Source of the DNA: a virus
IMG/VR virus record: IMGVR_UViG_3300025678_000004
Coordinates: 1-51,730 of that record
Length of the DNA stretch: 51,730 nt
Strand: one strand, 5' to 3'
Below, piece by piece: positions 1,516-51,730 of the stretch. Position 1 is the first letter of the stretch. Every line of letters begins with the position of its first letter. The position numbers and the translations under genes were made by a program. Under the pieces are notes generated by a model. It did not search any database and was not told the origin of the DNA. It saw nothing but the letters and a program-made list of their open reading frames with translations.

Positions 1516-3336
1516 TTATTCACCTGTAAACACAATCAAATCAAAATCCTCAACCGCCCTGGCGATGACCCTGTCCCAGACTGTTGGGTCTCTCATCCGT
1601 TCCCGGTGGTGCTTTGTCAGTTCACGGACCTGTCTTGCAATCTCCCGTGCAGCCTCAGTCGAACATCCTTTCCGGTTCGTTGTAACAGACGGCCCGGACG
1701 GGACAATGGTTATCTCAGCCCCATCATCACCAATGAGTTTGATCTCCGTTGTCGACTTCTTTATTCCCGCACTTCGTTCTTCTGCATCACCAAACTTTAT
1801 TTTGTCCTTTCCTCCACGACCCTTGTCCTGTCCTGACTGTTCAGTCTTTCTCCCACGGTTCGGTTCGGACGGTTTCCCTCCTTCACTCTGTTGCGACTTA
1901 CTCAGGTCACGGATGGTGATGTCTTCAAACTCAACAACATCATGCTCCTTGGTAAGTCCGGCAAGCCTCGCTGCATCGCGGTTCTTAATCCCCATCTCAA
2001 ACATCGTCTTTGCAGCCTGTGACTGTGCAAGCTTGGTCTCAGCAACCTTCATGGTGTCATCAAGATCCTGCTCAACCTCGAACTTGAACCGCATTCCCTT
2101 CTCATACCCGTCAAGATACGGCAGAATCTCACGGGTAAACACAACCTCAAGGAACCGCATGATCGGATACAGCATCTTTGATTTTGTGATGTTCCGAGAA
2201 ACATATGCGGTTGCACGGTTTGTCGACTCCCCGACAAACTCCTGGGGCTGGAATCCCCACATCGACCACACCAACTGGGCCATAAATTTCTGTCCCTCAA
2301 GCCATTCCATATCATGCAGCTTGTGGGACAGCGTCTCTACCTCTTCGTCTTTTACCAGATGAAGGGTTCCGCCAAACCTGAGCGGCCCCTGATTGTTCTG
2401 TTTCAAATCAGCAAGCCGTTGCATTAGTTGTTTCCGATCAGCAACCTGCGGGTGCTTGTAAATAAGCGAGGGGACAACACCATTTTGAAATGTCTTCCCG
2501 GCAGCACGAGTCGAATCAATAAGATACTGTATCGGGGCTTTAAGACACGAGATCCAATCGGTTCCGTATATAGTATCATTCCGAGGATACATGGACATAT
2601 AGGCGATTTCATTCGGATCAAAAGATATGTAAACGCCGGTCCTGGACCGCTGCCAGTACCGCTGTACATGCCCGTGCGAATAATACCCAATCTGCTTAGC
2701 AACCGGAATATTACTAAGATTAATTCCAACCGGGACACGATCGATCTCCTTCCAGAATTCAGTCCCAAGAAACGAATCAATCTCAACACACTTTCCCTTT
2801 CTGTTAAATGTCTTTACAAAAACACCGGCATCATACCGGGTGATGTCAGGAAGTGCCTTTTTAATCAGGTCTCCAAATGATACCTGTGGTCCGGGGAACT
2901 CAAGAAAATCATCCAAATCCTGCACGTGCTTGTTGTCACGATCGTATACCCCAAATTCGAGTGCAGCAGTATAATCACAGATAGATTTCTCACAAATGGC
3001 ATAATACGGGGTTGTTGCAAGCATGTCATTCGCAGCCTTGGAAAAGTACGGCCGCGCTATACCAAGAGTATTATAATAATTCGATATCGGATGAATTGCA
3101 CGTTCCCACTCCACAAACTCATCCCATTTCCTGGCATCCGCAATGTCAGGCTCATAATTTGTGGATATTGAAGACGGAATCGGTAATGTAAACCCCTCGC
3201 GGGCAGCAAACGCTTTTAAAAGAATCTCCGTGAGTTGTTCGGAGTTTATGCGATCCAACTCTTTATAAATATTTTCGTCTTTTTTTGACGCCTTCGGTAT
3301 ACTATTTGCCATCGGCTGCCTCTTAATAAAAAACAC
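1516..3336 (-). CDS. Portal protein
   Basis: 606 aa and the next same-strand gene after TerL. Its size and highly charged C-terminus are typical of portals, and there is no other portal-sized candidate. Assignment rests on position and size, not a named motif. Confidence 0.7.
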   Translation of the reverse strand: MFFIKRQPMANSIPKASKKDENIYKELDRINSEQLTEILLKAFAAREGFTLPIPSSISTNYEPDIADARKWDEFVEWERAIHPISNYYNTLGIARPYFSKAANDMLATTPYYAICEKSICDYTAALEFGVYDRDNKHVQDLDDFLEFPGPQVSFGDLIKKALPDITRYDAGVFVKTFNRKGKCVEIDSFLGTEFWKEIDRVPVGINLSNIPVAKQIGYYSHGHVQRYWQRSRTGVYISFDPNEIAYMSMYPRNDTIYGTDWISCLKAPIQYLIDSTRAAGKTFQNGVVPSLIYKHPQVADRKQLMQRLADLKQNNQGPLRFGGTLHLVKDEEVETLSHKLHDMEWLEGQKFMAQLVWSMWGFQPQEFVGESTNRATAYVSRNITKSKMLYPIMRFLEVVFTREILPYLDGYEKGMRFKFEVEQDLDDTMKVAETKLAQSQAAKTMFEMGIKNRDAARLAGLTKEHDVVEFEDITIRDLSKSQQSEGGKPSEPNRGRKTEQSGQDKGRGGKDKIKFGDAEERSAGIKKSTTEIKLIGDDGAEITIVPSGPSVTTNRKGCSTEAAREIARQVRELTKHHRERMRDPTVWDRVIARAVEDFDLIVFTGE

Positions 3337-4156: not shown

Positions 4157-5581
4157 TTACACCTCTATCACGCCTCCATACCGTCTTATTTTCTCATGTT
4201 CAGCCGTTCCGAACGCATCCTCAAACGGGTCATCAGCATATGCATCACTAGAAGTATCATACATAGCATCCCGAAGCCAGTCAAACACAGTTCCGTCATC
4301 ATATTCATCCTTTAAAATCACCTCGCCCGGCTTTCCGGAGAACTGTTCGTCATACTCTTCCTGGGTCAGATCTGACTCAAATCCCCCAAGACAGAGCGCA
4401 ACACCACCGTTCATCCCATAATTCATGAGCATAAGAGCACACACCTGATCATCAAAAAACCCTTTCGGAGCCCCGTATTTTATATTCCCCGAATCGGTCT
4501 GGGTATATGTAAACGATTCAAGTTCCTCACGAAGAGAGGGATCAGGCGGGATGAAAATCTCACAGTTATGAAATGCAATCGAAAGCCGTTTTACCAGTTC
4601 CTTCTTGCTTTCCATCGTAAACTTATAACTTACAACATTCACCCCGTCTTTCTCAAGATCTTCCTGAATTGCATCCCCCACTCCGGTAGTGTCCAGAAAC
4701 ACCGGCGGGCGTCCGTACCGCTCATACACATCCCGCACCCGCATTTTTATATACGCCCATGCGGTCCGGTTGAACCGTTCTGAGTACACCAGTTCCTTTG
4801 TGGTAGTGTCCCCGACGTGGATAACTGTAAAATCCTGGTGTCTTCCGAGATCCACCCCCATAACATAGATTCTACCCGGCACGTACTCTGGGGAAATATT
4901 ATAACGCACGCAAGAGTCAATATTTTTAAAAACAGTTCCACCATCTGACAGAAATATTGCAAGAATTTCCTGTTCATACTCAAGCTCCGACAAATCCTGA
5001 ACAATCTCTTCAAGTTCCTCACGTTCCAGAAACGGGTTATCATACGACGAAAAGGTAAAACTCTCCCATTTTGGGTTATATGTCGGACTTCCTTTCTTCC
5101 CCTTCATATACAACTTGTAATACCAGTTCTTTCCACGCGGAGTTGTACAAAAAAGGGCCCATCCAAGTTTGTCCATCAGTGCCGGACGAATGACTTTAAA
5201 CCATGCATCCGGATGAACCATCGCAGCTTCATCCAAAACCACTCCGTCAAGCCCTTCCCCACGCAGGTTGTCGTATTTTTCAGCCGATTTTGCCCAGATT
5301 GTGGCCCCGTTCTTCAGTTCTATGCACAATTTTCCAAGATAAATATCTTTTATATACTTTTTTGGCAGTAATTTAAGCACCATCCGCCACATGATGTCAG
5401 TCTGGGGGAACGTCGGGGCCACAATCCAGTATATCCCACCAGGCTTTGAAAGTGCCGAGACAATCACTTTTGTGGCTCCAAACCACGATTTTCCAAACCT
5501 ACGGCCGCAATTCAGGCATATAAACCTCGCTTTCGAGTTATATACCTTCATCTGGTTCTCATGCAGCCCGATTTCAAGCAT
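4157..5581 (-). CDS. terL: Terminase large subunit
   Basis: Walker A CGRRFGKS and Walker B VVLDEAA, plus C-terminal RNase H-like nuclease acidic motifs (GVDLGRHQDFTV, FLDTTGVGD, DDQVCALM). 474 aa. Confidence 0.9.
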   Translation of the reverse strand: MLEIGLHENQMKVYNSKARFICLNCGRRFGKSWFGATKVIVSALSKPGGIYWIVAPTFPQTDIMWRMVLKLLPKKYIKDIYLGKLCIELKNGATIWAKSAEKYDNLRGEGLDGVVLDEAAMVHPDAWFKVIRPALMDKLGWALFCTTPRGKNWYYKLYMKGKKGSPTYNPKWESFTFSSYDNPFLEREELEEIVQDLSELEYEQEILAIFLSDGGTVFKNIDSCVRYNISPEYVPGRIYVMGVDLGRHQDFTVIHVGDTTTKELVYSERFNRTAWAYIKMRVRDVYERYGRPPVFLDTTGVGDAIQEDLEKDGVNVVSYKFTMESKKELVKRLSIAFHNCEIFIPPDPSLREELESFTYTQTDSGNIKYGAPKGFFDDQVCALMLMNYGMNGGVALCLGGFESDLTQEEYDEQFSGKPGEVILKDEYDDGTVFDWLRDAMYDTSSDAYADDPFEDAFGTAEHEKIRRYGGVIEV

Positions 5582-6260: not shown

Positions 6261-6482
6261 ATGGCACGAAGAAAAACCGTATTGCCAATTGCAGCAGTCG
6301 CAAGAATCGCACATGTAAAAGATGGCATCAGAGTCGAAAAAGGAGCGATTGAACTTGCAATTGCTGATGTTGAAGCCTCAATAAAAGACCTCTTCAACGG
6401 AGCATATCAGTTTACCGAACACAGGGGCGGAACGATGATTATGAAGAAAGATGTAGAAGCATACCTAGCATCAATTCAATAA
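6261..6482 (+). CDS. Archaeal histone-fold protein (HMf-like)
   Basis: 73 aa that aligns by eye to HMfB: LPIAAVARI vs LPIAPIGRI, RVE..A vs RVS..A, and the C-terminal EHRGGTMIMKKDVEAYL vs RHAGRKTIKAEDIELAV. It carries a short basic N-terminal extension, MARRKT. Confidence 0.8.
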   Translation: MARRKTVLPIAAVARIAHVKDGIRVEKGAIELAIADVEASIKDLFNGAYQFTEHRGGTMIMKKDVEAYLASIQ

Positions 6483-6890: not shown

Positions 6891-7075
6891 TCACACTCCA
6901 GACATTCCATGAGAGCATTATAGAAGCACCTGGAATCGCAAAACTCAGACTCCTCCATATCCACCAGCCTTACAGCACCTCCCACGACTGTAGATGCCTT
7001 GAAGCTCGTTACAGTGAAAATGTCATCCCAGTCCTGGAACGGCCGGTTGCAGTAGTCACACATCCCGCGGGTCAT
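6884..7075 (-). CDS. FCS/TRASH-like zinc-finger protein
   Basis: MTRGMCDYCNRPF...EFCDSRCFYNAL has a CxxC plus FCxxxC arrangement. The start ATG 7075 overlaps the upstream stop (ATGA). The longer tracked ORF (to 7144) overlaps the GT gene. Confidence 0.5.
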   Translation of the reverse strand: MTRGMCDYCNRPFQDWDDIFTVTSFKASTVVGGAVRLVDMEESEFCDSRCFYNALMECLECEW

Positions 7076-7956
7076 CCGAACACCTCCAGAAACGCTGAAA
7101 TTTGAGCCTCGTGGCTGTAATAATCTACATACCACTCCCTGCACATATCCTGAATCTCGCCGATATCATCAATGCTGCCATGAAATTTCATGATGTCCCG
7201 TTCGATATTACAGATGTTTTTCACATACACAAACGGAATTTCATCCAACCGATCCTGGAGTTTCCCGTAATACCAGTCTGCCGGCGTCATGCCGCCGGAT
7301 TCAATATACACCGGTATCCGCCCTGACGCAAGCGTCTCGAAGAACCGGAGTGACCAGTTTGCGTTCCCCCGTGCACATACCTGGTACTGGTTTGCCAGCA
7401 TATTTGACCTGAACAGCGGACCGTGTCTCCTGTAATCCGGGTGGGACTCGTTAAAAAACCCGGCGGAATCGCCTTCAGGTGCCATCCGAACATGAAAATC
7501 ACAGCATATCTCATTTGACCGGTTCAGTCGTTCAAGAGCCTCAAGACGGGGTTCAAACCCACGGTGAATCGCTTTTACCGTTCCTTCACCGTCTTTTGCA
7601 GGCAGATCAAATATCGGGACCCTGCCAACAAACCCTACTGTCGGAACCTCCGTGTACTCCGAGTGCGGAAGCTGCACGATCTTCCTGAAATCCTGGCGAA
7701 GCCACATATACGTCTCCGGGTGTTCTGCAGATGTCATAAACTGAATCGAATCACACCCCGGTATCGGTTCTGCAAAGTCAGATTCTATGAAAACCATATC
7801 AAAATTGTTTATATGGCCAACAAGACACGTATTTTTCATAAAATCATCAATGTAATAATACCCGAGCACCTCGGGATACACATTCGCACCATAATCACAT
7901 GCAAACTGAAACAAATCCATATCAACCATTTCTCCACACACACGAAGGATTTTCAC
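7072..7956 (-). CDS. Exostosin (GT47)-like glycosyltransferase
   Basis: 294 aa. The C-terminal RGNANWSLRFFETLASGRIPVYIESGG resembles the exostosin-family R..E.L..G.IPV motif. No search was run. Confidence 0.45.
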   Translation of the reverse strand: MKILRVCGEMVDMDLFQFACDYGANVYPEVLGYYYIDDFMKNTCLVGHINNFDMVFIESDFAEPIPGCDSIQFMTSAEHPETYMWLRQDFRKIVQLPHSEYTEVPTVGFVGRVPIFDLPAKDGEGTVKAIHRGFEPRLEALERLNRSNEICCDFHVRMAPEGDSAGFFNESHPDYRRHGPLFRSNMLANQYQVCARGNANWSLRFFETLASGRIPVYIESGGMTPADWYYGKLQDRLDEIPFVYVKNICNIERDIMKFHGSIDDIGEIQDMCREWYVDYYSHEAQISAFLEVFG

Positions 7957-8167
7957 GCCTTATACGCGACGCATATTCACGGGACGCAACCGGATACGCC
8001 CCGGCAAACGTGTAACTGCATGAGTTACACCTGAAATGAGGTCTCGGTGCGTTCAAAGACAACACCTCACCCGCTATCCAGTGAACCCCGTGCCGTTTGC
8101 ACGACGGACACACCATACCAGGAACCTCAAGACCAGGTCTCGGAACTCCGTCAACAGGGTATCCCAT
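7922..8167 (-). CDS. Zinc-ribbon protein
   Basis: CPSCKRHG...FRCNSCSYTF is a four-Cys ribbon resembling the N-terminal ribbon of some IS transposases, but no catalytic domain follows. Confidence 0.5.
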   Translation of the reverse strand: MGYPVDGVPRPGLEVPGMVCPSCKRHGVHWIAGEVLSLNAPRPHFRCNSCSYTFAGAYPVASREYASRIRRENPSCVWRNG

Positions 8168-8170
8168 ACA

Positions 8171-8731
8171 TCACACCCGGAAAAATGCCCCTGATACCAG
8201 AGCATCAATGTTCCTGTCAAGCCATTCCTCACACTTCTTAAAATCAACCTTATACACCGGGCACAACGGGCTCCGCCGTTTCAGGTGAGACACGCGGCAC
8301 ATCACATAATCAAACTGGGACCCTTTCGTAACCCGGCAATAACACCATTCACGGTCAAGCGTCATCCCTAACTGAACAAGATACCGACGGTTTACCTGAT
8401 ACCGGGTGTTCTGGTGAGTGTCACGCCGATACGGTTCAAACTGGATGATCGTCTCCTCATAAAACCTATACAGCAATTCCTGTGACAACCGCCACATCTG
8501 TTTCGCCGGTTTCCCCGTCCGTGAACCAACCTTCACCATATACCCGATATACCGGGCACGACGGACACAAAACCCCTTCGCAGTACACACATCATCAAAA
8601 TCAGATGCCGTAAACAGACCCCCGCGAAACCGCTCATACACCGCACGCAAAACGTCAGTCTCTTCCGCGGTTGCTTCATATAACCGCGACTTTATAGTCA
8701 GAACATCGGAACGAAACCCGTTATACGTCAT
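8171..8731 (-). CDS. Hypothetical protein
   Basis: 186-aa ORF on the dominant strand with purine-rich coding strand composition like its neighbours. Confidence 0.55.
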   Translation of the reverse strand: MTYNGFRSDVLTIKSRLYEATAEETDVLRAVYERFRGGLFTASDFDDVCTAKGFCVRRARYIGYMVKVGSRTGKPAKQMWRLSQELLYRFYEETIIQFEPYRRDTHQNTRYQVNRRYLVQLGMTLDREWCYCRVTKGSQFDYVMCRVSHLKRRSPLCPVYKVDFKKCEEWLDRNIDALVSGAFFRV

Positions 8732-8734
8732 GCA

Positions 8735-9049
8735 TTACTCCTCTCTCGTAGGACACAGCCCGTATACCAACTCACCTATCTTCACAACCAGTATCGGACC
8801 TACCCGGGGATGCTCAACCATCTGAACCCGGACATCAACATGGGACCCGCGTTTAAAATCACCTTTGTGACGCTTATACAACTCATTCGCAAACTTCAAA
8901 AACGCTCTCGCACGATACGTCTGGTCCACAGCAACAGGACACCCGGACAAACACGTGCCGACAAACTTCTCCGAAAAAACACCAGATACATGAGAAATAC
9001 CATCAAACTCAAAGTCATCATCGAAAACATTCAATCTATCCCCTCCCAC
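8735..9049 (-). CDS. Hypothetical protein
   Basis: 104-aa ORF, tightly packed with its neighbours. Confidence 0.5.
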   Translation of the reverse strand: MGGDRLNVFDDDFEFDGISHVSGVFSEKFVGTCLSGCPVAVDQTYRARAFLKFANELYKRHKGDFKRGSHVDVRVQMVEHPRVGPILVVKIGELVYGLCPTREE

Positions 9050-9357
9050 GGCAACGTCACATACTTGCTCGGATTGTCATACCGCACGCAATGCCACTCA
9101 CATTCCTCAAAAAACTCAAACAACTCCTTCCCAAACCATACCTTCGGGACCTTGATACTCCTCGCATTCAGACTCTCATCAAACGCCTCACCAGCATTGC
9201 CCTCCGTTGTGACTGGGGAGACCCGGTGGTTCTGGTAATACCGGCACCGCTTCTCCGAACAGATGTCCCTGTTCCTGTGCCTGTTATACGCAGGACACCA
9301 GGGACCAGGTTTCGAACCCTCCAATACACGATACCCACCATGGTCACCGGCCATCAT
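9031..9357 (-). CDS. Hypothetical Cys-rich protein
   Basis: Likely start is MMAGDHGGY at 9357, overlapping the RHH ORF stop. The tracked start at 9387 would overlap the RHH ORF out of frame. Confidence 0.5.
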   Translation of the reverse strand: MMAGDHGGYRVLEGSKPGPWCPAYNRHRNRDICSEKRCRYYQNHRVSPVTTEGNAGEAFDESLNARSIKVPKVWFGKELFEFFEECEWHCVRYDNPSKYVTLPWEGID

Positions 9358-9481
9358 TCGTCTCCCGGACATAATCATCATATACATCCATCAGCCGCTC
9401 AAACAATGCACTCCATGATTCACGCGGACGTTTCAACTTCTCTCCACGACGATACGTCTCTTCATGCAAATTCACTTGCAT
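9344..9481 (-). CDS. Ribbon-helix-helix (CopG/Arc-like) DNA-binding protein, first gene of the leftward arm
   Basis: Hand-translated 45 aa: MQVNLHEETYRRGEKLKRPRESWSALFERLMDVYDDYVRETNDGR. The pattern is a beta-strand followed by two helices. A TATA-like CATAAATACA lies about 25 nt upstream, suggesting a leaderless transcript. It is below the ORF-track size cutoff. Confidence 0.5.
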   Translation of the reverse strand: MQVNLHEETYRRGEKLKRPRESWSALFERLMDVYDDYVRETNDGR

Positions 9482-9501
9482 ACATAATCATTCAACTTCT
9501 A

Positions 9502-9531
9502 TGTATTTATGTGTATTCATTTGTATTTATG
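9502..9531 (-). promoter_or_regulatory. Two direct copies of TGTATTTATG (minus strand CATAAATACA), a TATA-like pair upstream of the RHH gene
   Basis: Copies at 9502-9511 and 9522-9531, 20 bp apart. The proximal copy is centred about 25 nt from ATG 9481. Confidence 0.4.
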
Positions 9532-9668
9532 ATCGATTTTTTTGAAAATTTTTGTGTGAAGGGCTCAGCCCCTTCCCTTTGACGCTGTCGTGATGCTTTG
9601 TGCTGGAGGTGCACGTGCCACCAGCGTCTGGGCACCACGATTTATTCATTCAAGCACTGGTGATCAGC

Positions 9669-9866
9669 ATGACAGCAATGCCAGATCTTAACAAGCCAGC
9701 ATTCAGAGCAATGCCCAAGGCAGCACAGCGAGTCAAACAACACCTCTGCCCATGTTGTGGCAAGCCAGTAGGAGAGTTCAGAGATGAGTTATCCAAGCGT
9801 GAGTATAGCATCAGTGGCATGTGCCAGGCATGTCAGGATTCAGTCTTCGGACTTTCGGAAGAATAG
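9669..9866 (+). CDS. Zinc-ribbon protein (solitary transcription unit)
   Basis: MTAMPDLNK...CPCCGKP...MCQACQD. GGTGA lies 5 nt upstream of ATG 9669, and the tracked GTG 9600 start lacks a Shine-Dalgarno motif. It is followed by a T8 tract. Confidence 0.55.
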   Translation: MTAMPDLNKPAFRAMPKAAQRVKQHLCPCCGKPVGEFRDELSKREYSISGMCQACQDSVFGLSEE

Positions 9867-9904
9867 TCTGGAGAAGCACGGAGCCGATGACGACTAATCT
9901 ATTC

Positions 9905-9912
9905 TTTTTTTT
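9905..9912 (+). terminator. Oligo-T (T8) tract
   Basis: TTTTTTTT lies about 40 nt after the stop of the 9669..9866 gene. Confidence 0.4.
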
Positions 9913-10412
9913 ATCATTCCGGGGCAGTATCTCCATCTCCATACCCCCCCAATAATAATTGTTGCAATCCATCATAGGTGCCGCAGCAATTATTAAATAC
10001 TTTGAATCATAATTAATGATCTAAGTACTATTGTGATGATGAATGGTGATTAGTGGTGGATCAATGATGGATCAGTGAATTTTGATGACTGATACATTCA
10101 ATAATCATCATATAAATATCACGGAGGGGGGATGATGATAATAAACAATAATTATCATCTATTTTTGAATAAATAATCAATAAAATCAATATTTTATTTT
10201 AATTAAATACATTCATAATTCTCCAGTTGAAATCAAGGTATATATACATACATTTCCACTGCATGTATACCCAAATTCACACTGTGAATTCAATGTATTT
10301 TTTTGTTAAAATAAATATTGATTCCTTACCCTGATTAATTCTTTTTTATTATATTGAGCCAGGATGCACCTATCACCGTACACGTCCCTGCCCTGGCTCA
10401 AAGGAGGTAATT
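9913..10412. promoter_or_regulatory. About 500-bp AT-rich non-coding control region at the head of the rightward arm (candidate origin and/or early promoter/operator field)
   Basis: There is no credible ORF. Elements seen: a 12-bp-arm inverted repeat at 9954-9965/9983-9994 (1 mismatch); tandem 11-bp repeats GGATCAATGAT/GGATCAGTGAA at 10058-10079; ATCATCAT/ATGATGAT inverted pair near 10094-10140; a 17-bp palindrome at 10274-10290; and a 9-bp-stem hairpin at 10355-10363/10392-10400 just before the GGAGGT Shine-Dalgarno motif. Confidence 0.5.
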
Positions 10413-14105: not shown

Positions 14106-14116
14106 AGGTGAACATC

Positions 14117-16066
14117 ATGACAAATATTGTGAAGTTATGGAAAGAAAACCTGGACACCGCACACAAAGGCGAAATCATTGTATTGAAAGCAGAATACCCA
14201 AAGAAATCAAGTATAACAATCAACATCAATAACACACAGAAGGAATTATTTGATGAAATTGTAAAAGACCCGATACTCGCTGAAAATGCATTATATTCAG
14301 CGCTGATGGAAGGAAAATACATCCCGGGGTGGAATGGGTCAAAACACACAATTTCAATCAGATTCATCGGGTTCCCACAAAGAATCAAAGTAAAAGACCT
14401 GAACTCAAAGCACCTGGAAAAATTCACATCCATGAGAGTTGTCGTAAAGAAAATAAACAGTGTAAAACCAAGACTTGTGCATGCAGCATTCAAATGCAAC
14501 GCCTGCAAGGAAAAGATCACATATGTCCCTGTGGAAGAGGATGAAGTCGTTCCTCCGTCTGAAAAATGTCTCTGTGGTGGTAAATCATGGAGGTTCCTGC
14601 TCAGATCATCAATCAAAAAAGACTACCAGATCATCCAGGTCCAGGACCCTGCCGAAGACGGAGGAAGTTCAAAACCAGAGGTTCTCACAGTCAAACTCCT
14701 GGACGATTTATGTGGTAAAGTCCAGCCAGGAAACATCATAGTTATCAACGGTATCTATAGAGGCCAGCAGAAAAAACAGTCGGCCACATTAGATACCTAT
14801 CTGGATGCAAAATCCATTGAGATAACAAACAAAGACTTCAGCAAAATTGAAATCACAGAGGATGAAATTCGTGAATTCGAAGAACTTGCAAAAAATCCAG
14901 ATATATATGATATGTTATGGTCATCTATCGGATCAGTGGTCAAAGGATGGGAAGCAGTCAAACAAGCGATATTACTGCAGCTTCTTGGAGGGTGCGAGAA
15001 AATCACCGCGGATGGAGATCGCTTTAGGCCGGATTTCCACATCCTGTTATGTGGAGATCCATCCGTTGCTAAGTCAAAAATTCTCCGCTCTGCCTACAAC
15101 CTATGCCCCAGAGGTATTTATGCATCTGGCAAGGCTACATCAGCTGCTGGACTCACAGCGGCAGCCACAAAGGCATCAGACGGGGGATGGGAGATTGAGG
15201 CTGGTGCTGCCGTATTAGCAGACAAAGGCATGCTCATCATAGATGAGCTTGACAAAGTCGACAAGGAGGCAGTATCATCTCTCCATGAAATTCTTGAGGA
15301 ACAGATTCTCCATATCAACAAAGCAGGTATTAGTGCAGACCTTGCAACACGTGAATCCTGTCTTGCTGCAGCAAACCCGAAACGTTCACGATTTGACAAA
15401 TACCAGGACCTTGCATCCCAGGTTGCGTTCGCACCATCTCTTCTCTCACGGTTCGGTCTCATATTCCTCATGATTGACGAGCCGGACAAAACAAAAGACC
15501 GGGAGATTGCAAAGCACATCATCAACTCCCACCGGGGAGTGACTCATGAAAAACCAATTCCGATTGAGACCCTCCGGAAATACATTGCACATGCAAAACA
15601 GTCCTGTGAGCCGGAGATAACAGATGAAGCAGCACGGATGTATGAGGAGTATTATGTTAAAATAAGACATTCAAACGGAGAATCGACTATCCCTATAACA
15701 CCCAGGCAGATTGAGGATATCATCAGGATGTCAGAAGCCAGTGCAAAGACACGGCTGTCAAAATATGTTGAGCCGGTTGATGTCAGCCGTGCCATATGGA
15801 TATACGAACAGGCAATGAGAATGACTGCAACAGACCCGGGGACCGGGTCCATTGATGTGGATAAGATAACCGGAGGGATGTCATCATCAGCACGGGAAGG
15901 AATGGCAGAACTCAAGAAGTTGCGGTCTGAATTCTTTGAACAGTTCGAAAAATGGCCGTCAAAAAAGGAACTAAAAGATTATGCAATGCAGAAAGGAATG
16001 TCTGAATCATCAGCAGCATACCTTACCCGCGAATTGTGGAAAGAGATGGGACTGAATGCATATTAA
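14117..16066 (+). CDS. mcm: MCM replicative helicase
   Basis: Zn motif CNACKEK...CLCGG; Walker A LLCGDPSVAKSKIL; Walker B LIIDELDK; sensor AAANPKRSRFD; arginine finger LLSRFGLIF. AAGGTGA lies upstream of ATG 14117, and the tracked GTG 14108 lies inside that Shine-Dalgarno motif. Confidence 0.92.
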   Translation: MTNIVKLWKENLDTAHKGEIIVLKAEYPKKSSITININNTQKELFDEIVKDPILAENALYSALMEGKYIPGWNGSKHTISIRFIGFPQRIKVKDLNSKHLEKFTSMRVVVKKINSVKPRLVHAAFKCNACKEKITYVPVEEDEVVPPSEKCLCGGKSWRFLLRSSIKKDYQIIQVQDPAEDGGSSKPEVLTVKLLDDLCGKVQPGNIIVINGIYRGQQKKQSATLDTYLDAKSIEITNKDFSKIEITEDEIREFEELAKNPDIYDMLWSSIGSVVKGWEAVKQAILLQLLGGCEKITADGDRFRPDFHILLCGDPSVAKSKILRSAYNLCPRGIYASGKATSAAGLTAAATKASDGGWEIEAGAAVLADKGMLIIDELDKVDKEAVSSLHEILEEQILHINKAGISADLATRESCLAAANPKRSRFDKYQDLASQVAFAPSLLSRFGLIFLMIDEPDKTKDREIAKHIINSHRGVTHEKPIPIETLRKYIAHAKQSCEPEITDEAARMYEEYYVKIRHSNGESTIPITPRQIEDIIRMSEASAKTRLSKYVEPVDVSRAIWIYEQAMRMTATDPGTGSIDVDKITGGMSSSAREGMAELKKLRSEFFEQFEKWPSKKELKDYAMQKGMSESSAAYLTRELWKEMGLNAY

Positions 16067-16355
16067 ACCAACAGCACAGGCTTGCGCCGCCGCTGGGTGT
16101 GACAGGTTTGTTCGCCGGGTGTTGTATGGCGTCCTGATCGTTGATGTGTGTGCTGAATGTGCACTGCGCATCAACTCACTCGAATCATGCCCTCTGGCTG
16201 ACCCATATCCTGACCCAAAACCACCAAAACGGTATAAACCACAGTCTGAAACGAAGATGAAACAAAAAATAAAAAAAGCCGAAATAATAAATGCGGCACG
16301 TAAGGAGGACTATTCATCAAAAATCAAAAGGTTAAAGAAACGTTACAAAATGTAA
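16056..16355 (+). CDS. Zinc-ribbon protein with Lys-rich tail
   Basis: 99 aa overlapping the MCM end by 11 nt. It has C..AGC...VCAEC followed by KKAEIINAARKEDYSSKIKRLKKRYKM. Its last codons run into the first iteron. Confidence 0.5.
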   Translation: MHIKPTAQACAAAGCDRFVRRVLYGVLIVDVCAECALRINSLESCPLADPYPDPKPPKRYKPQSETKMKQKIKKAEIINAARKEDYSSKIKRLKKRYKM

Positions 16356-16460
16356 AGGTACCTTTACAAAATGTAAAACATACTTTACATTGTCTGACAT
16401 GTGTCTGACGGGTGTCTGACATGTAAAGTTTATTTTACATAATGTAAAAAATGTTTTACG
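16343..16460. repeat. Iteron/palindrome field (candidate replication origin)
   Basis: At least 7 copies of ATGTAAA/TTTACAT in about 110 bp. Three direct TGTCTGAC copies with 11-bp period (16391-98, 16402-09, 16413-20) are bracketed by a perfect 8-bp inverted repeat CTTTACAT/ATGTAAAG. Four AATGAT/ATCATT copies follow at 16471-16502. Confidence 0.55.
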
Positions 16461-16528
16461 CGCCGCATTTAATGATCATAATGATTAAATCATTTGAATG
16501 ATTATGTACAATGTACTTGGATCCTCAG

Positions 16529-16580
16529 GGGAGTACGGGCAAGCCCGGACAAACAACAAACCCCCGAAGGGGGAACTCCT
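16529..16580 (+). ncRNA. Candidate structured RNA element (three-way junction)
   Basis: An outer stem GGGAGU/ACUCCU encloses the hairpins CGGG-CAAG-CCCG and CCCCC-GAA-GGGGG, joined by the A/C-rich linker GACAAACAACAAA. It is GC-rich in an otherwise AT-rich intergenic region. Strand and function are unknown. Confidence 0.25.
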
Positions 16581-16609
16581 AAGCAGGGCAAAGATCTATT
16601 ATTATTATA

Positions 16610-16661
16610 TTAATGATCTAAGATCATTAATCAGCACTTCTGAAAATTCACGCTGTGAATT
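16610..16661. promoter_or_regulatory. Two operator-like palindromes upstream of the 16695 operon
   Basis: TTAATGATCT-A-AGATCATTAA (16610-16630, perfect 10-bp arms) and AATTCACG-C-TGTGAATT (16645-16661). Both motifs recur in the 9.9-10.4 kb region: TTAATGATCTAAG at 10013-10025 and AATTCACA-C-TGTGAATT at 10274-10290. Confidence 0.5.
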
Positions 16662-16694
16662 GGGCTTATTTTCCGATTTTAGGCGGGTGTTAAC

Positions 16695-17051
16695 TTGAAA
16701 GTTGAAAACTGCGCCCAATGCTTCAATCTTTTTCATGATTTCGTGGACGGCTGGGTATGTGATGTGACCATGCAGCCGGTGTTCATGATGCTCGGGTGTC
16801 CGATGGAACGGGATGATGTCCCTATTGATCTGGACCCGTGTTATGTATGGTTCCCGACACCTCAGTATGCGGTTGTATACTGCAAAAACGCCGGATTCAA
16901 ACGCCCGTGCCAGTTTCTTAACGGATACCGGTGCACAATCAGCCATGCTGATATACGACATGCCAGGTACTGCCCACTCCCGAGATTTGATCCGGAAACA
17001 CTGAAAACATTAACACCAAAGGCCAACTATGATATATTGCGAATGTGGTGA
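16695..17051 (+). CDS. Cys-rich hypothetical protein
   Basis: 118 aa with a TTG start (uncertain). The plus strand is G>C here, like other plus-strand genes. There are several Cys pairs (CAQC, GCP.., CQF..C). Confidence 0.45.
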   Translation: MKVENCAQCFNLFHDFVDGWVCDVTMQPVFMMLGCPMERDDVPIDLDPCYVWFPTPQYAVVYCKNAGFKRPCQFLNGYRCTISHADIRHARYCPLPRFDPETLKTLTPKANYDILRMW

Positions 17052-22165: not shown

Positions 22166-24426
22166 GTCTTTGCCCCGGTTCTTATGTTTTGGACTTTTGC
22201 TGCAACCCCAGTTTCACTTGTTATAATCACACGTGACAACTCCTGGTTTCTGTGCCGCTGACTGGTGACATCCTTGGTGTCACGCACGAATTCGAGAATG
22301 TCATTAAAGGATGTTCCCGGGGTTCCAAAGTATATATCCGGCGCTCCCCGCTGGGGTTTCACGGTTTTTTGAATAACAAACTTCTGCTTTATCTTATACC
22401 AGTGTTTTGGCTGACCGGAAGGAGTATTTTTTGGAATCTGAACCCATTCGGATTCCGGTTGCGGAGATGTGTTTGTGGATGCATAATCAAACCAGTGGGT
22501 TGGATACCATGTTGCAACAGTTGTATCAAATCTACCCTTTGTTGCAACCTGTATGTAGATGATGTCGCCTGGGTACAATCCATCCGGCACTTTCCACGGG
22601 TCGTAACTGAAATATGTAAGGTTCCCGGTAACAGGAAGTGCGGACAGTCGCATATGACCTTCAGCAACCTTGTCAAGGGTATCGATATCAGCAACACCTT
22701 TCACAACAACCTGGGCGGGGATATATCCGTACTTGTAATACGGGGAATCACGTGCAACATCCTCATAATGTTCCCCGGTCTGATCCATGTAATAATACGT
22801 CTCGGGGAACACGATTGCATGCTTGTGGTGAGGGTATTTCTCTGTCCAGGGGATCTTGTCTGGGGTAAGCCCCTTTGGGCATATCTCTGAAAACTGCATA
22901 TCATTCTTGATGTTTTTACATGCAAGAACCGGGCATGGGGACGTGCTGTCAAAACACACCGGGCATGCAGTTCCGTCTGATGTAATCAGATCACTGTGTT
23001 TGAACGCAACCCCGTTTGATACCATGTCCTTTGCGAGTTCGCAAAAGTCGGTTATTTTTTCATTTGCATCACACCCTCCGAACGGGCATCCGGTAGTCCA
23101 CCCGATCTTTCCGATTCTGGTGCCAGCATGCTGACACGACGCACATGCACATGCAGGAACCCCTCGTACAATATCCTGCAGGTAGTAATGATATGGTTCG
23201 TTGTCTGTGACATAGGAGCATACCCGGTAGTAAATGCGTTCAGACCCGATCCATACAAACCCTTTCTCTGCAACAAGGTTCTTTTCAAATGTAAGATACG
23301 ATGAAACGGATATTTTGCATTCCCCGTATAAGACATCATCATAAATTGCAGATGTCTCCGGCTCTGTGCCGTATGCATTGATGTTCCGGTTGCTGGTGTA
23401 CGTTGCAGTCTGCACCGATTCTATCCAATGAACCGGCCTTTGGTACAACGATGCAACAATAACCCCGGTGGTATTATAATTCTGAACCGACTGGAAATAT
23501 GGTACAACTGTTGTATCATCAAGATCGCCGTTTTCCCAACTTGCTACGTGGATGCCAGGGAGAAAGTATACTCCGGATATTTTGAGTTTTTCTTTGTTTA
23601 TGTATACTGTAGTGTTTGGAGTAGGAAGATCCAACAGATAGTTTGTGGGGGATGCGGGAAAATAGTAATAATATAATGAATCAGGTGACATTTCCGGGCG
23701 TTTTAACTGGGTATCTTTCATTTCAATGACTCTTGGTGCAGCATTCCAGTCTCCTATTTCGGCGTCCATCTGCACCTGCTTGATTCCAAGTTCCGATTCT
23801 GCCCCGAATACTGTTATGGATGTGGCGAGTTTTCCGTAATCTATGGTAACATTGAAGTTTGCAAAGTCTTTCCATTCAGTGAGCGATTTGCACGGGAGAA
23901 TGTCTGCCTCACTCTGGTATGGGAGATTTGTAAACGTGTCTCTGTAAAATGCCTTTACCGTCTTTATGTAATTCCCGTTGTCATACCCACAGAAAACAGT
24001 GAAATCAAGCCCGAGAATATTGCATATTGTGGTGATGTGTGAGATATAGGTGCCGTTTCGCAGGATGTATGAGATGTACCGGGGGGATGTATCAAAATCA
24101 GGTGGATATTCAAACGTCCACCCATCGGGAATGAGATAGTCTTTGATAAGGGATATTGCGTTGACCTGCCTGAATTCACTCGGCATTTTGACAATATTGT
24201 TTCTCAGTTCCCTGGCATATGACTCTGCGGTAATGGTAAGGGTAAGCCGGTCTCCGGCGATTTTTGATTCTGTGATGATCCCGTAAAATCCAGCCTGTCC
24301 AATATCAATTTTACACCCCTCCTTAAACAGGTCGAGATCTGCCTGTTTCTCCACAACCACAGTCGATTTAAATATATCAACTGCTTTTGCGTTATATTCA
24401 AAAGAGTAGTTTTTAAAGAACGCCAT
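22144..24426 (-). CDS. Tail-tip/baseplate hub-like protein with Cys-rich insert
   Basis: 760 aa, two genes downstream of the tape measure. A Cys cluster VPACACASCQH...GCPFGGC...CPVC...CPVLAC...ICP is encoded at about 22879-23160. Confidence 0.45.
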   Translation of the reverse strand: MAFFKNYSFEYNAKAVDIFKSTVVVEKQADLDLFKEGCKIDIGQAGFYGIITESKIAGDRLTLTITAESYARELRNNIVKMPSEFRQVNAISLIKDYLIPDGWTFEYPPDFDTSPRYISYILRNGTYISHITTICNILGLDFTVFCGYDNGNYIKTVKAFYRDTFTNLPYQSEADILPCKSLTEWKDFANFNVTIDYGKLATSITVFGAESELGIKQVQMDAEIGDWNAAPRVIEMKDTQLKRPEMSPDSLYYYYFPASPTNYLLDLPTPNTTVYINKEKLKISGVYFLPGIHVASWENGDLDDTTVVPYFQSVQNYNTTGVIVASLYQRPVHWIESVQTATYTSNRNINAYGTEPETSAIYDDVLYGECKISVSSYLTFEKNLVAEKGFVWIGSERIYYRVCSYVTDNEPYHYYLQDIVRGVPACACASCQHAGTRIGKIGWTTGCPFGGCDANEKITDFCELAKDMVSNGVAFKHSDLITSDGTACPVCFDSTSPCPVLACKNIKNDMQFSEICPKGLTPDKIPWTEKYPHHKHAIVFPETYYYMDQTGEHYEDVARDSPYYKYGYIPAQVVVKGVADIDTLDKVAEGHMRLSALPVTGNLTYFSYDPWKVPDGLYPGDIIYIQVATKGRFDTTVATWYPTHWFDYASTNTSPQPESEWVQIPKNTPSGQPKHWYKIKQKFVIQKTVKPQRGAPDIYFGTPGTSFNDILEFVRDTKDVTSQRHRNQELSRVIITSETGVAAKVQNIRTGAKTWVRMIR

Positions 24427-49661: not shown

Positions 49662-51730
49662 TCACCCACTAAACACGCTAGGAACCGCAGGCATACATGA
49701 AACTTTCACATATACCGCATACCGGTTTACACCAGGTATCCGCTCAAACGCTTTTACAGTCCCTCCAAAAATCCGCATTCCTCCAACAGTATAATCAACT
49801 ATAAACTTAAACACAGAATAATGAGAAATTTCAACCGTATACGTAACATGTCCAAACCGATCAAATTTCAATACAGTATCAATACCCATCTGAACACATG
49901 AAACATTTACCTCAACCCCTTCATATCCACGCATATTTGGAGTAATACCCCCCCATGCAATAATATCAATATATATTCGCTGAGATGTATCCGGATTCAG
50001 TGATTCCAGTGTAACCACATATGTCGGTGTTGTTCCTGCAATAGAATCCACAAACACCATTTTTGTTTTATACCCGTCACAGCTCACAACACATTCATAT
50101 ATCCCAAACAAAAGAGTCCAGAATGTATACTCACCATATTTTGTGGATTCCCCAATTTTAACTGCTACAGGCGATTTATTATTCTCATCAGTAACAACAC
50201 GGATATAAAAGTTCCCATACATATTCGGGTCATAAATAGGCACCGAATCCCCCCATTTCCCAAGCAACACAATAACCGCATTCGGCTTTATCGACCCAAA
50301 TGTAAATGTTATTTCCCTGTTTACACGATCGATAGTCGCGTCGCCGGTGGAAACCCCCACCCCGGTAACCGGATCATATGCAAGAAGACCTATCGGATCG
50401 TTTGCAGTAACTGACACGTTTTCGCGGACAATGCCTTTAAGATCATATCGTATCGTCCCAACGCTATCGCGTTTTCCATGCGCAGAACCAGGAATATGAT
50501 ACAATCCCTCCAGATACTTACTTCCCCCAACACTAATAATCCCACCCTGACTCTTAAACGAATATGTCACATATTCATCCTCTTCTTCCGGTGGAGGAAT
50601 TGGCCCCGGGTCTGGCGGATCAACCGGAACCACAGGCGGGGGAGAAACCTCATTATCATCAAAATACGCAGGAGTAATTGTAAAATAACATGGATCAACT
50701 AATATAGGAAGTCCTGGGCCTGGGGTTGGGTTTGGAACTGGATTCGGGGTAGGGTTCGGTTTTGGAATCTTTGGTATTTTTGGCGGGGGGATCGATTCTT
50801 CTTCCTTCTCCTCCTCCTCTTCTTCCTTTACTTCCGGCTCAATATTATTTAAAAACTCAAACACAGCAACGCCATAATTAATTCCATTCCCCTTAGAAAC
50901 CGGCCCTCCTTCATGCTGCCACGACCCCTTAATATACTTAAACACAAACAGCGCCGCCTTACGAAGCGGGTCCTGTTCTATCTTTTTCTGAATTTCTTCA
51001 ACCGCCACTTCAACATCAATCCACCCCCTGGCGGTCTTAACCATATATTTCCCATATTTTGCATCCTCAACATACCGCTCAACAATCCTGCCTCCAACAA
51101 CCTCAATCTCCCGGCGTAAAAACCCGGACATTTTAACCGTAGCAGGGATCTTCGTAATTCCTTTTGCCCCACCACTCCCAAGCGTCAGTTCAATCACATC
51201 AAGCATTGTCCCGATAGCCCCGCGGGCACGTTGCAAAGACCCGGTTACAACACTGTTTAACGCAACCACCCCCATCATTCCAAATTCCCCACCAACAGAA
51301 TACCCCATATACATCAGTTCTGTCGGAAGCCCGTGAATTTTTACATACCCTTCAGTACCATCATCTGCACGGGCTTCAGACACAATGTACAAATCATAAT
51401 CATTCTCAACCGATTCTGTTAAATAAACATCACACTCGCGAGATTCGCGTGCAACAACTGTAACAGCACCAGAACCACAATACCACACAGATCCAAACTT
51501 TGCATACCCCCAAACACAACACTGGGAACCTGCCGCGAACATCGCACTGCACGGGCTCACGGTCATGTACATCCCCCCATCCGTGCGATATCCAACAAAC
51601 ATTATGCGAATACCTTCAACGTAACTTCCATCAGGAGCAAACGTACGAATTTTAACATATCCGTATTCCTGAACATACGGCCCAGGTTCAAGCACATACG
51701 GCTGAACCATTATATCTGCAAAAACCTCAC
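49662..51730 (-). CDS. 3' portion of the junction-spanning 931-aa gene (continues from 854..1)
   Basis: The ORF is open to the window end. The tracked Met at 51710 is internal (residue 250 of the full protein). It contains a poly-Glu plus Pro-rich linker: EEEEEKEEESIPPPKIPKIPKPNPTPNPVPNPTPGPGLP. Confidence 0.8.
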   Translation of the reverse strand, partial: EVFADIMVQPYVLEPGPYVQEYGYVKIRTFAPDGSYVEGIRIMFVGYRTDGGMYMTVSPCSAMFAAGSQCCVWGYAKFGSVWYCGSGAVTVVARESRECDVYLTESVENDYDLYIVSEARADDGTEGYVKIHGLPTELMYMGYSVGGEFGMMGVVALNSVVTGSLQRARGAIGTMLDVIELTLGSGGAKGITKIPATVKMSGFLRREIEVVGGRIVERYVEDAKYGKYMVKTARGWIDVEVAVEEIQKKIEQDPLRKAALFVFKYIKGSWQHEGGPVSKGNGINYGVAVFEFLNNIEPEVKEEEEEEKEEESIPPPKIPKIPKPNPTPNPVPNPTPGPGLPILVDPCYFTITPAYFDDNEVSPPPVVPVDPPDPGPIPPPEEEDEYVTYSFKSQGGIISVGGSKYLEGLYHIPGSAHGKRDSVGTIRYDLKGIVRENVSVTANDPIGLLAYDPVTGVGVSTGDATIDRVNREITFTFGSIKPNAVIVLLGKWGDSVPIYDPNMYGNFYIRVVTDENNKSPVAVKIGESTKYGEYTFWTLLFGIYECVVSCDGYKTKMVFVDSIAGTTPTYVVTLESLNPDTSQRIYIDIIAWGGITPNMRGYEGVEVNVSCVQMGIDTVLKFDRFGHVTYTVEISHYSVFKFIVDYTVGGMRIFGGTVKAFERIPGVNRYAVYVKVSCMPAVPSVFSG
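51604..51730. repeat. Terminal direct repeat, right copy (identical to 1..127)
   Basis: Same as the left copy. The unique genome length is therefore 51,603 bp. Confidence 0.95.

Follow-up and report, generated by a model that had tools for sequence, protein, structure and literature searches.

The intergenic region that follows the mcm gene in IMG/VR record IMGVR_UViG_3300025678_000004 raises the question of what a dense field of short, symmetrically arranged repeats is doing next to a replicative helicase. The record, analysed here over its whole length of 51,730 nt (henceforth the window), carries this field at positions 16342-16460, and an initial annotation based on the letters alone had considered it a candidate origin of replication. 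The comparison with related viruses led to a different picture: the field is a discrete cassette that is exchanged between viral backbones independently of the neighbouring proteins. The reading favoured here, to which we would give a probability of about 40%, is that the field is a lineage-specific operator or upstream binding array governing the boundary between early and middle transcription.

The architecture of the field is highly regular. It contains nine TTTACA/TGTAAA half-sites, whose orientation alternates strictly with a 9/12-bp spacing, generating a 21-bp period, and which are symmetric about three TGTCTGAC repeats. On the left side, half-sites of the TTTACA type start at 16342, 16363 and 16384 and those of the TGTAAA type at 16351 and 16372, with a period of exactly 21 bp. 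The right side mirrors this arrangement (TGTAAA at 16422 and 16443, TTTACA at 16434 and 16455), and the dyad centre of the whole field falls at 16405.5, in the middle of the TGTCTGAC triplet. These three direct repeats, on the plus strand at 16391, 16402 and 16413 (span 16391-16420), have the exact 11-bp period that had been described for them. They are bracketed by CTTTACAT (16383-16390) and ATGTAAAG (16421-16428), an inverted repeat initially given as 8 bp whose match in fact reaches 9 bp, and these brackets form the inner ends of two 28-nt arms (16363-16390 and 16421-16448) that are 86% complementary. The left side comprises the 15-bp palindromic site T1, GTTACAAAATGTAAA (16342-16356), and, 21 bp from it, the site T2, TTTACAAAATGTAAA (16363-16377), which together make up the period-21 array. 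T2 is mirrored about 16405.5 by T3, the previously noticed palindrome TTTTACAT-A-ATGTAAAA, located at 16433-16449, and a degenerate outer inverted repeat, GTAAAA-AATG-TTTTAC(G) (16444-16460), holds the last half-site of the field.

The count of at least seven ATGTAAA/TTTACAT copies that had been put forward needs to be lowered, since six exact 7-mers are found (16350, 16371, 16421 and 16442 on the plus strand, 16384 and 16434 on the minus strand). The number of seven applies to the TGTAAA/TTTACA 6-mer core, and two additional half-sites match it in five of six positions (GTTACA at 16342 and TTTACG at 16455). Even so counted, six copies of one 7-mer within 100 bp represent the densest such cluster in the window, to be compared with a maximum of four in 100 second-order Markov simulations, and when the 168 bp were shuffled 3000 times, six copies came up just once; the cluster therefore is not due to chance. 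Neither the 15-mer dyad nor the TGTCTGAC 8-mer forms another cluster anywhere in the genome. The GC content is 0.29 in the field and 0.25-0.29 when the adjoining AATGAT array is included, the segment 16311-16511 is the second least stable 200-bp window of the genome (z 3.0), and 16340-16462, taken as a single strand, folds at -25.5 kcal/mol (z = -5.9). Thus, helical phasing, inverted bracketing, AT-richness and adjacency to mcm, on which the origin proposal was founded, are all real.

The key information came from the homologous region of relatives, gathered from about nine distinct lineages. In most of them a repeat field lies directly 5' of a conserved cassette (16460-16694 in the window) but varies in sequence, in architecture and in the number of its copies, and at least five unrelated repeat cassettes occupy this one position on the same virus backbone. 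The TTTACA/TGTCTGAC type is found in the window and in L013, L014 and L015, while L001, L002, L017 and L006 carry ATCT(A/C)TATAGAT palindromes spaced by 20/20/10/20 bp, L003 and L020 contain TTTCAAAA...TTTTGAAA palindromes, L008 presents five to six contiguous 10-bp direct repeats (TTCTACAYGA), and L010 and L011 have ATCAAAARTGAGA-type repeats. One and a half copies of TGCTACAGTGTAGCA, the GCTACAGTGTAGC cassette of L001-like variants, are found in L016, L018, L019 and L022, and L009 has a single TGCTACAGTGTAGCA copy, that is, one 15-bp palindrome, so that the number of sites per field ranges from 1 (L009) to about 6 (L008). Phasing in multiples of 10-11 bp recurs in L001, L006 and L008 (10 bp in the latter). 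L012 has neither field nor cassette, and its Cys-rich gene begins within ~30 bp of the zinc-ribbon gene; since the whole intergenic unit is missing there, it must be dispensable at this position. Conservation in relatives, which had been proposed as a check, therefore gave a divided answer: some field is usually present at the same position, but the repeat sequences are constant only among near-identical strains.

Pairwise comparisons demonstrated how cleanly the fields are exchanged. L001 and L022 are 97% identical before the field and 93% after it, and their MCM and zinc-ribbon proteins are 98-99% identical, yet their fields and repeat types are unrelated. The same holds when L018, L019 and L022 are compared with L001 (MCM 96-98%, zinc-ribbon protein 94-99% and downstream proteins 84-100% identical, with a different repeat type) and for L001 versus L016, whose proteins are likewise near-identical. 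Between L006 and L016, with flanks of 92% and 89% identity, 160 bp have been swapped cleanly for an unrelated 57 bp. L009 and L016, whose MCM proteins are ~72% identical, share the field, and beyond it just a 118-bp stretch could be aligned, at 69%. Overall, the proteins flanking the field are 92-100% identical across differing repeat types. A co-variation screen of 13 neighbouring protein families, based on an identity matrix, revealed none that follows the repeat type: p137, p302 and GP88 were ruled out as determinants by their mosaic patterns, and p121, MCM, the zinc-ribbon protein, Cys118, p85, p130 and p102 by the comparison of L001, L022 and L019. The field is exchangeable as a cassette because it is self-contained, and, as it swaps while MCM and the zinc-ribbon protein stay near-identical, these two proteins do not set its specificity. 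Both had been proposed as its specific binders, a notion that has to be abandoned, given that proteins 94-99% identical adjoin unrelated repeat types.

These observations bear directly on the possibility that the field is an iteron-type origin, whether as the sole origin or in addition to the site at 10.2 kb described below. In such a model an initiator would bind the phased repeats, the AATGAT stretch would melt and two viral MCM hexamers would be loaded symmetrically. The array offers much of what this model would need, as it occurs just once in the genome and combines helical phasing with dyad symmetry (three 11-bp TGTCTGAC repeats plus 15-bp dyads at 21 bp), with a GC content of 0.29, a place within the second least stable window and an inverted repeat with 28-nt arms (z -5.9), and the 10-11 bp phasing is maintained in L001, L006 and L008. 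Its position directly downstream of the mcm operon recalls the origin of pRN1, situated after a helicase gene (PMC4234260), and in some archaea several origins coexist, each with its own initiator (PMC3607249). Furthermore, the window and L013 agree at 98-99% of positions over the intergenic region, as against 67-93% in the flanks, although this could result from recent recombination, as other 100%-identical blocks exist. It speaks against the model that the repeat type is independent of MCM, of the zinc-ribbon protein and of each neighbouring replication gene, and this independence removes the hallmark of an iteron origin, a linked and co-varying initiator. In addition, no initiator gene is recognisable by Pfam in the 40 ORFs scanned and none is adjacent, L009 manages with one palindrome and L012 with no unit at all. 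On balance, an iteron-type origin is a possible but doubtful explanation for the field.

The iteron origins of theta plasmids and lambdoid phages illustrate this point. They consist of several short, helically phased repeats beside an AT-rich stretch, with lineage-specific sequences, and the initiator gene with which their iterons co-vary lies next to them or overlaps them. The field resembles them in having phased, lineage-specific short repeats next to an AT-rich stretch, but differs in that its type changes while all neighbouring genes remain 92-100% identical.

A second argument is the existence of another origin candidate in the same genome, at 10140-10263, composed of an AT-rich stretch of the unwinding type (10147-10247) and an inverted pair resembling origin recognition boxes (ORBs). 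One member of the pair, TCCAGTTGAAATCAAGGTAT (10222-10241, plus strand), matches the ORB consensus in 17 of 20 positions, and its partner (10244-10263, minus strand) does so in 15 of 20. The euryarchaeal ORB consensus is GTTCCAGTGGAAAC-AAA-GGGGG (PMC1868953), and the common motif given for Ori-Finder 2 is TCCA[CG]T[TG]GAAA[TC][GA]AAGGGGT (PMC4164010). TCCAGTTGAAATCAAGGTAT is the best ORB match in the window, although a 17/20 match alone is not rare, being reached in 3 of 40 simulated genomes. Matches of at least 15/20 occur in the window only at 10222, 10244, 27346 and 49915, and none falls within 16343-16510. The exact mini-ORB TTCCAGTGGAAA is found at the homologous spot in seven relatives, where it is also their best ORB match (L013 ~1860, L001 ~1780, L006 ~1751, L003 ~1356, L007 ~2624, L008 ~1709/1953 and L009 ~843). 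The segment 10147-10247, which abuts the pair, is the least stable duplex of the genome (GC 0.16, z 4.7). Finally, the pair is located at a switch to divergent transcription, ~6 kb from the field, and, because transcription diverges there, forks that start from it would travel in the direction in which most genes are read.

By the usual archaeal criteria, therefore, 10140-10263 would be a better origin candidate than the field, and the "classic origin architecture" attributed to the latter fits this other site instead. Alternatively or additionally, the segment may serve as an operator of the early promoter. No Orc1/Cdc6 domain was detected by Pfam in the 40 ORFs scanned, and consequently the ORB-like site would need a host initiator; a virus with its own MCM may thus borrow this component from its host. 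With respect to archaeal Orc1/Cdc6 origins, in which inverted ORBs flank an AT-rich unwinding element, the field is similarly intergenic and AT-rich, with dyad-symmetric repeats near a replication gene, and its symmetry would suit head-to-head loading of MCM. It differs from them in that it has no ORB-like sequence and belongs to a genome with no detectable orc1/cdc6, whose ORB-like pair lies at 10.14-10.26 kb. The origin proposal for the field thus keeps its phasing, symmetry, AT-richness, adjacency to mcm and the pRN1 precedent in its favour, and it is weakened by the comparisons with relatives and by the presence of the ORB-like site elsewhere. In pRN1 itself, the 166 bp that follow the primase-helicase gene orf904 contain the origin, a stem-loop of ~100 nt (PMC4234260). 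The window likewise has its field directly after a replicative helicase operon and can form a long stem-loop with 28-nt arms, but its helicase is an MCM rather than a prim-pol/SF3 fusion, and the relatives have tandem repeats or short palindromes in place of the stem-loop. A way to reconcile both candidates, which we consider rather unlikely, would be that the field is an exchangeable origin-specificity cassette, a second, iteron-type site for MCM loading recognised by a factor whose gene is not adjacent, perhaps a protein of the host, while the ORB-like site uses host Orc1. If this were true, a swap would re-target replication to another host or incompatibility group.

The region downstream of the field would point to a role in transcription. 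The conserved cassette begins with GCGCCGCA, followed by an AATGAT/ATCATT array with a TATA-like TTAAAT (16460-16505). The four array copies that had been reported are present at 16471, 16480, 16489 (minus strand) and 16497, and two more are found at 16612 and 16623 (minus strand). Then come, on the plus strand at 16506-16600, a GTAC motif and a C-rich stretch with GC hairpins (16536-16548 and 16561-16573, enclosed by an outer stem pairing 16530-16534 with 16575-16579). In 11 lineages the hairpins occupy the same place with differing stem sequences and the pairing is kept, with fold z values of -1.9 to -4.8 for the plus strand. A perfect palindrome, ATTAATGATCT-A-AGATCATTAAT (16609-16631), follows a TATA-like TTATTATATTA and is a putative operator at a promoter. 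ATGATCTTAGATCAT is found exactly in L001, L003, L006, L008, L016, L020, L021 and L022, and the palindrome TAATGATCTnAGATCATTA is exact in eight loci. A further palindrome, AATTCACGCTGTGAATT (16645-16661), has its sole other genome copy at 10274-10290, in the early promoter region (4 strand-matches versus 0.3 expected). The order of elements in the cassette is GYGCCGCA, AATGAT array, GTAC, two or three GC hairpins, TAATGATCTnAGATCATTA, AATTCACnnTGTGAATT and the gene for a 118-aa Cys-rich protein.

Several of these motifs recur ahead of the early plus-strand genes, with GTGCCGCA at 9978, TAATGATC at 10014, followed by TAAGTAC, and AATTCACACTGTGAATT at 10274, this last position being also that of the sole other copy of AATTCACnnTGTGAATT; the recurrence is observed in relatives as well. 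The AT-rich divergent region that precedes these genes contains more AATGAT-type arrays. Genome-wide, AATGAT is scarce (38 copies versus ~66 expected, with 100 of 100 shuffles giving at least 38), yet six copies lie within 16471-16628. Because its motifs recur at the early promoter region, the cassette appears to be a reused control unit, and the motif set common to both plus-strand operon fronts would most simply be a promoter/operator system responding to a factor common to the virus group. A promoter with its operators, a small structured RNA, or both may lie in the cassette. At threshold it matched no Rfam family (permissive hits had E >=0.8), nor was any tRNA found, and the reading as a small RNA or known RNA family was rejected on these grounds. 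An ORF spanning the cassette (16498-16698) was also discarded, as its frame is broken in L003 and its openness is due to the GC-rich, stop-poor stretch. Archaeal promoters were judged by eye; the scanner used, of the bacterial sigma-70 type and as such not applicable to them, served just to establish the absence of T-runs.

These observations could be accommodated by considering the field as an array of sites for a sequence-specific protein on double-stranded DNA, forming the variable upstream part of a composite control region that separates the early (mcm) operon from the one after it. In this model, a regulator that dimerises or oligomerises would cover one face of the helix along the field, tuning read-through from the mcm operon and/or the firing of the adjoining promoter/operator cassette at 16460-16694, which would itself be governed, through its AATGAT and AATTCAC palindromes, by the factor common to the virus group. 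The binder would be neither MCM nor the zinc-ribbon protein, but the product of a more distant viral gene or of a host gene, and swapping the self-contained field among relatives would change regulatory or immunity specificity or the match to the host. A control role is supported by the fact that every lineage with a field has it directly 5' of the same conserved cassette, as well as by the variable copy number and by the dispensability seen in L012. Moreover, sites of the field are palindromes with spacers of 0-3 bp (for instance, ATCTATATAGAT and TGCTACAGTGTAGCA); since RNA hairpins cannot form with such short loops, these sites fit the binding of a dimer to duplex DNA. There are precedents in the archaeal viral regulators F55, SvtR and AvtR, which bind tandem or inverted repeats in or beside promoters (PMC5569661). 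The operators of SSV1 F55, SIRV1 SvtR and AFV6 AvtR share with the field their tandem or inverted repeats of 10-20 bp, their location in or beside promoters and a variable number of sites, suggestive of protein oligomerisation along the DNA (PMC5569661). They differ from it because no ribbon-helix-helix (RHH) or helix-turn-helix (HTH) regulator is recognised here, the promoter is a prediction, and the array is larger and more symmetric.

A number of facts weigh against this regulatory reading. The promoter was deduced by eye, from TATA-like boxes and operator-like palindromes that adjoin the field. A Pfam scan of the 40 ORFs brought up no regulator of the RHH, HTH or winged-helix kind, although small unannotated ORFs remain as candidates. 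Operators are usually linked to the gene of their regulator, and yet the neighbours do not co-vary with the repeat type, as seen in the screen of the 13 families. A repressor would be expected to sit closer to the putative start than the ~50-70 bp by which the last site precedes it. Lastly, repeats unique in the genome, dyad symmetry and AT-richness would fit an origin equally well.

The short loops just mentioned also affect the view of the field as a structural element, be it a hairpin at the 3' end of the mcm operon (a terminator or a stabiliser) or a cruciform. A strong fold placed directly after a stop codon, with GC hairpins next to it in the cassette, would agree with such a role. Nevertheless, no run of at least five T follows the field, and the long inverted repeat is limited to the field type of the window: the direct 10-bp tandems of L008 and the palindromes with 0-1 nt loops of L001 and L009 could not form a comparable hairpin, one palindrome is all that L009 has, and L012 has nothing. 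We regard a structural function as improbable.

The exchange of the field might alternatively reflect a recombination hot spot, and its short phased tandem repeats resemble centromere-like arrays, so that a site for another DNA transaction (a plasmid-type partition centromere, a packaging (pac) site or a recombination site) was contemplated. The parC locus of plasmid R1, with its 11-bp iterons, is a centromere-like array of this sort. However, no ParA/ParB, integrase or recombinase was identified by Pfam in the ORFs scanned, no proviral copies were found among 185,579 genomes and the terminase genes are ~10 kb away, which makes this possibility, if anything, slightly more remote than that of a structural element.

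Viruses are already known to carry phased repeat arrays in intergenic regions that act in control or as origins, and what is unusual in the present case is the exchange of the cassette unlinked from its neighbours. For archaeal viruses that encode an MCM, hardly any origin or gene-control circuit has been mapped. The field, to return to its favoured interpretation as a regulatory binding array, provides a compact, naturally varying test object of 120 bp, whose cassettes could serve to fish out the binder and to gauge what a swap does. At 10.2 kb, in turn, the ORB-like site is a place to ask whether a virus bearing MCM but no recognisable Orc1 borrows the initiator of its host. Should the field prove to be an origin, it would be the first described for such viruses, with an unusual origin specificity unlinked from the replication genes.

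The TGTCTGAC triplet at 11-bp spacing was also found in nine unrelated IMG/VR contigs, but its interpretation as the sign of a shared factor was rejected. With two permuted 8-mers as controls, 15 and 0 hits were obtained, and the carrier contigs share no proteins; hence, triplets elsewhere belong to the background of 11-bp tandem arrays. A search with an 18-mer of another repeat type produced one extra hit, at chance level. A family of unrelated phage contigs (L038 at 2622, L040 at 4716 and L041 at 3724) carries four to six tandem 11-bp repeats with ATGTCTGAC beside a ribonucleotide reductase gene, in which the 8-mer is constant and the 3-nt spacers vary. The permuted controls suggest that their likeness to the iterons of the window is coincidental.

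As for the operon upstream of the field, mcm (14108-16066, plus strand) encodes a 652-aa protein with the Pfam domains MCM (E=5.6e-77), MCM_OB and MCM_lid. Among isolated viruses it matches only archaeal ones, with 25-31% identity, whereas in a large protein collection it falls in a viral clade of ~14 sequences (62-98% identity), followed by cellular MCMs at 39%, which come from methanogens and other Euryarchaeota. The zinc-ribbon gene, taken from the ORF list (16056-16355, plus strand), encodes 99 residues rich in Cys and Lys and overlaps mcm by 11 nt. Its stop codon (TAA, 16353-16355) falls within the first repeat of the field, in agreement with the overlap originally noted. In relatives, too, this gene adjoins mcm and its Cys columns are invariant, and the protein gave no sequence match in Pfam or the PDB. 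The next operon starts with the gene for the 118-aa Cys-rich protein (16695-17051, plus strand, TTG start), which is kept in all relatives. In L006 the MCM gene (7001-10018) encodes 1005 aa with a LAGLIDADG-type insert, probably an intein in the viral helicase. Another peculiarity is a 116-aa gene located between the zinc-ribbon gene and the field in L006 (10304-10654), L016, L018, L019, L020 and L022, of which L001 retains at 8236-8281 a remnant, the 3' end only, fused to the zinc-ribbon gene. Its product is 87-91% identical across three differing repeat types, and being so nearly constant it is not the binder of the field.

Regarding the virus itself, bases 1-127 of the window are identical to bases 51604-51730 over 127 bp, as shown by end comparison, which implies that the genome is closed, either as a circle or by terminal redundancy, and measures 51,603 bp. 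The minus strand encodes the large terminase (4157-5581), the portal (1516-3336), a prohead-protease-like protein, a collagen-like tail fibre and a subtilase, while the plus-strand block at 10.4-19.0 kb comprises a DUF2637 protein, a GP88-like protein, the full MCM and a DUF1064 protein. On the basis of this gene set, and of the resemblance of its MCM to those of archaeal viruses and to euryarchaeal cellular MCMs, the virus is classified as an uncultivated archaeal head-tailed virus, probably with a host of the methanogen type. The contigs of the relatives are metagenomic, one of them labelled farmland. No relatives, proviral or otherwise, were found in the 185,579 genomes searched, nor was there a DNA-level match to the window in the phage collection. 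GC skew tracks gene orientation alone and is uninformative on the position of the origin.

Two further elements of the genome deserve mention. The virus seems to have a histone gene: a 73-aa ORF at 6261-6482 (plus strand), placed on the strand opposite to that of its neighbouring genes, matches the archaeal histone fold of Pfam family CBFD_NFYB_HMF (E=2e-4, just above the curated cut-off). In addition, the second densest 7-mer cluster of the window is formed by four copies of GTTGCAA, counted on either strand, within 40 bp (22511-22548) inside a minus-strand gene of 760 aa.

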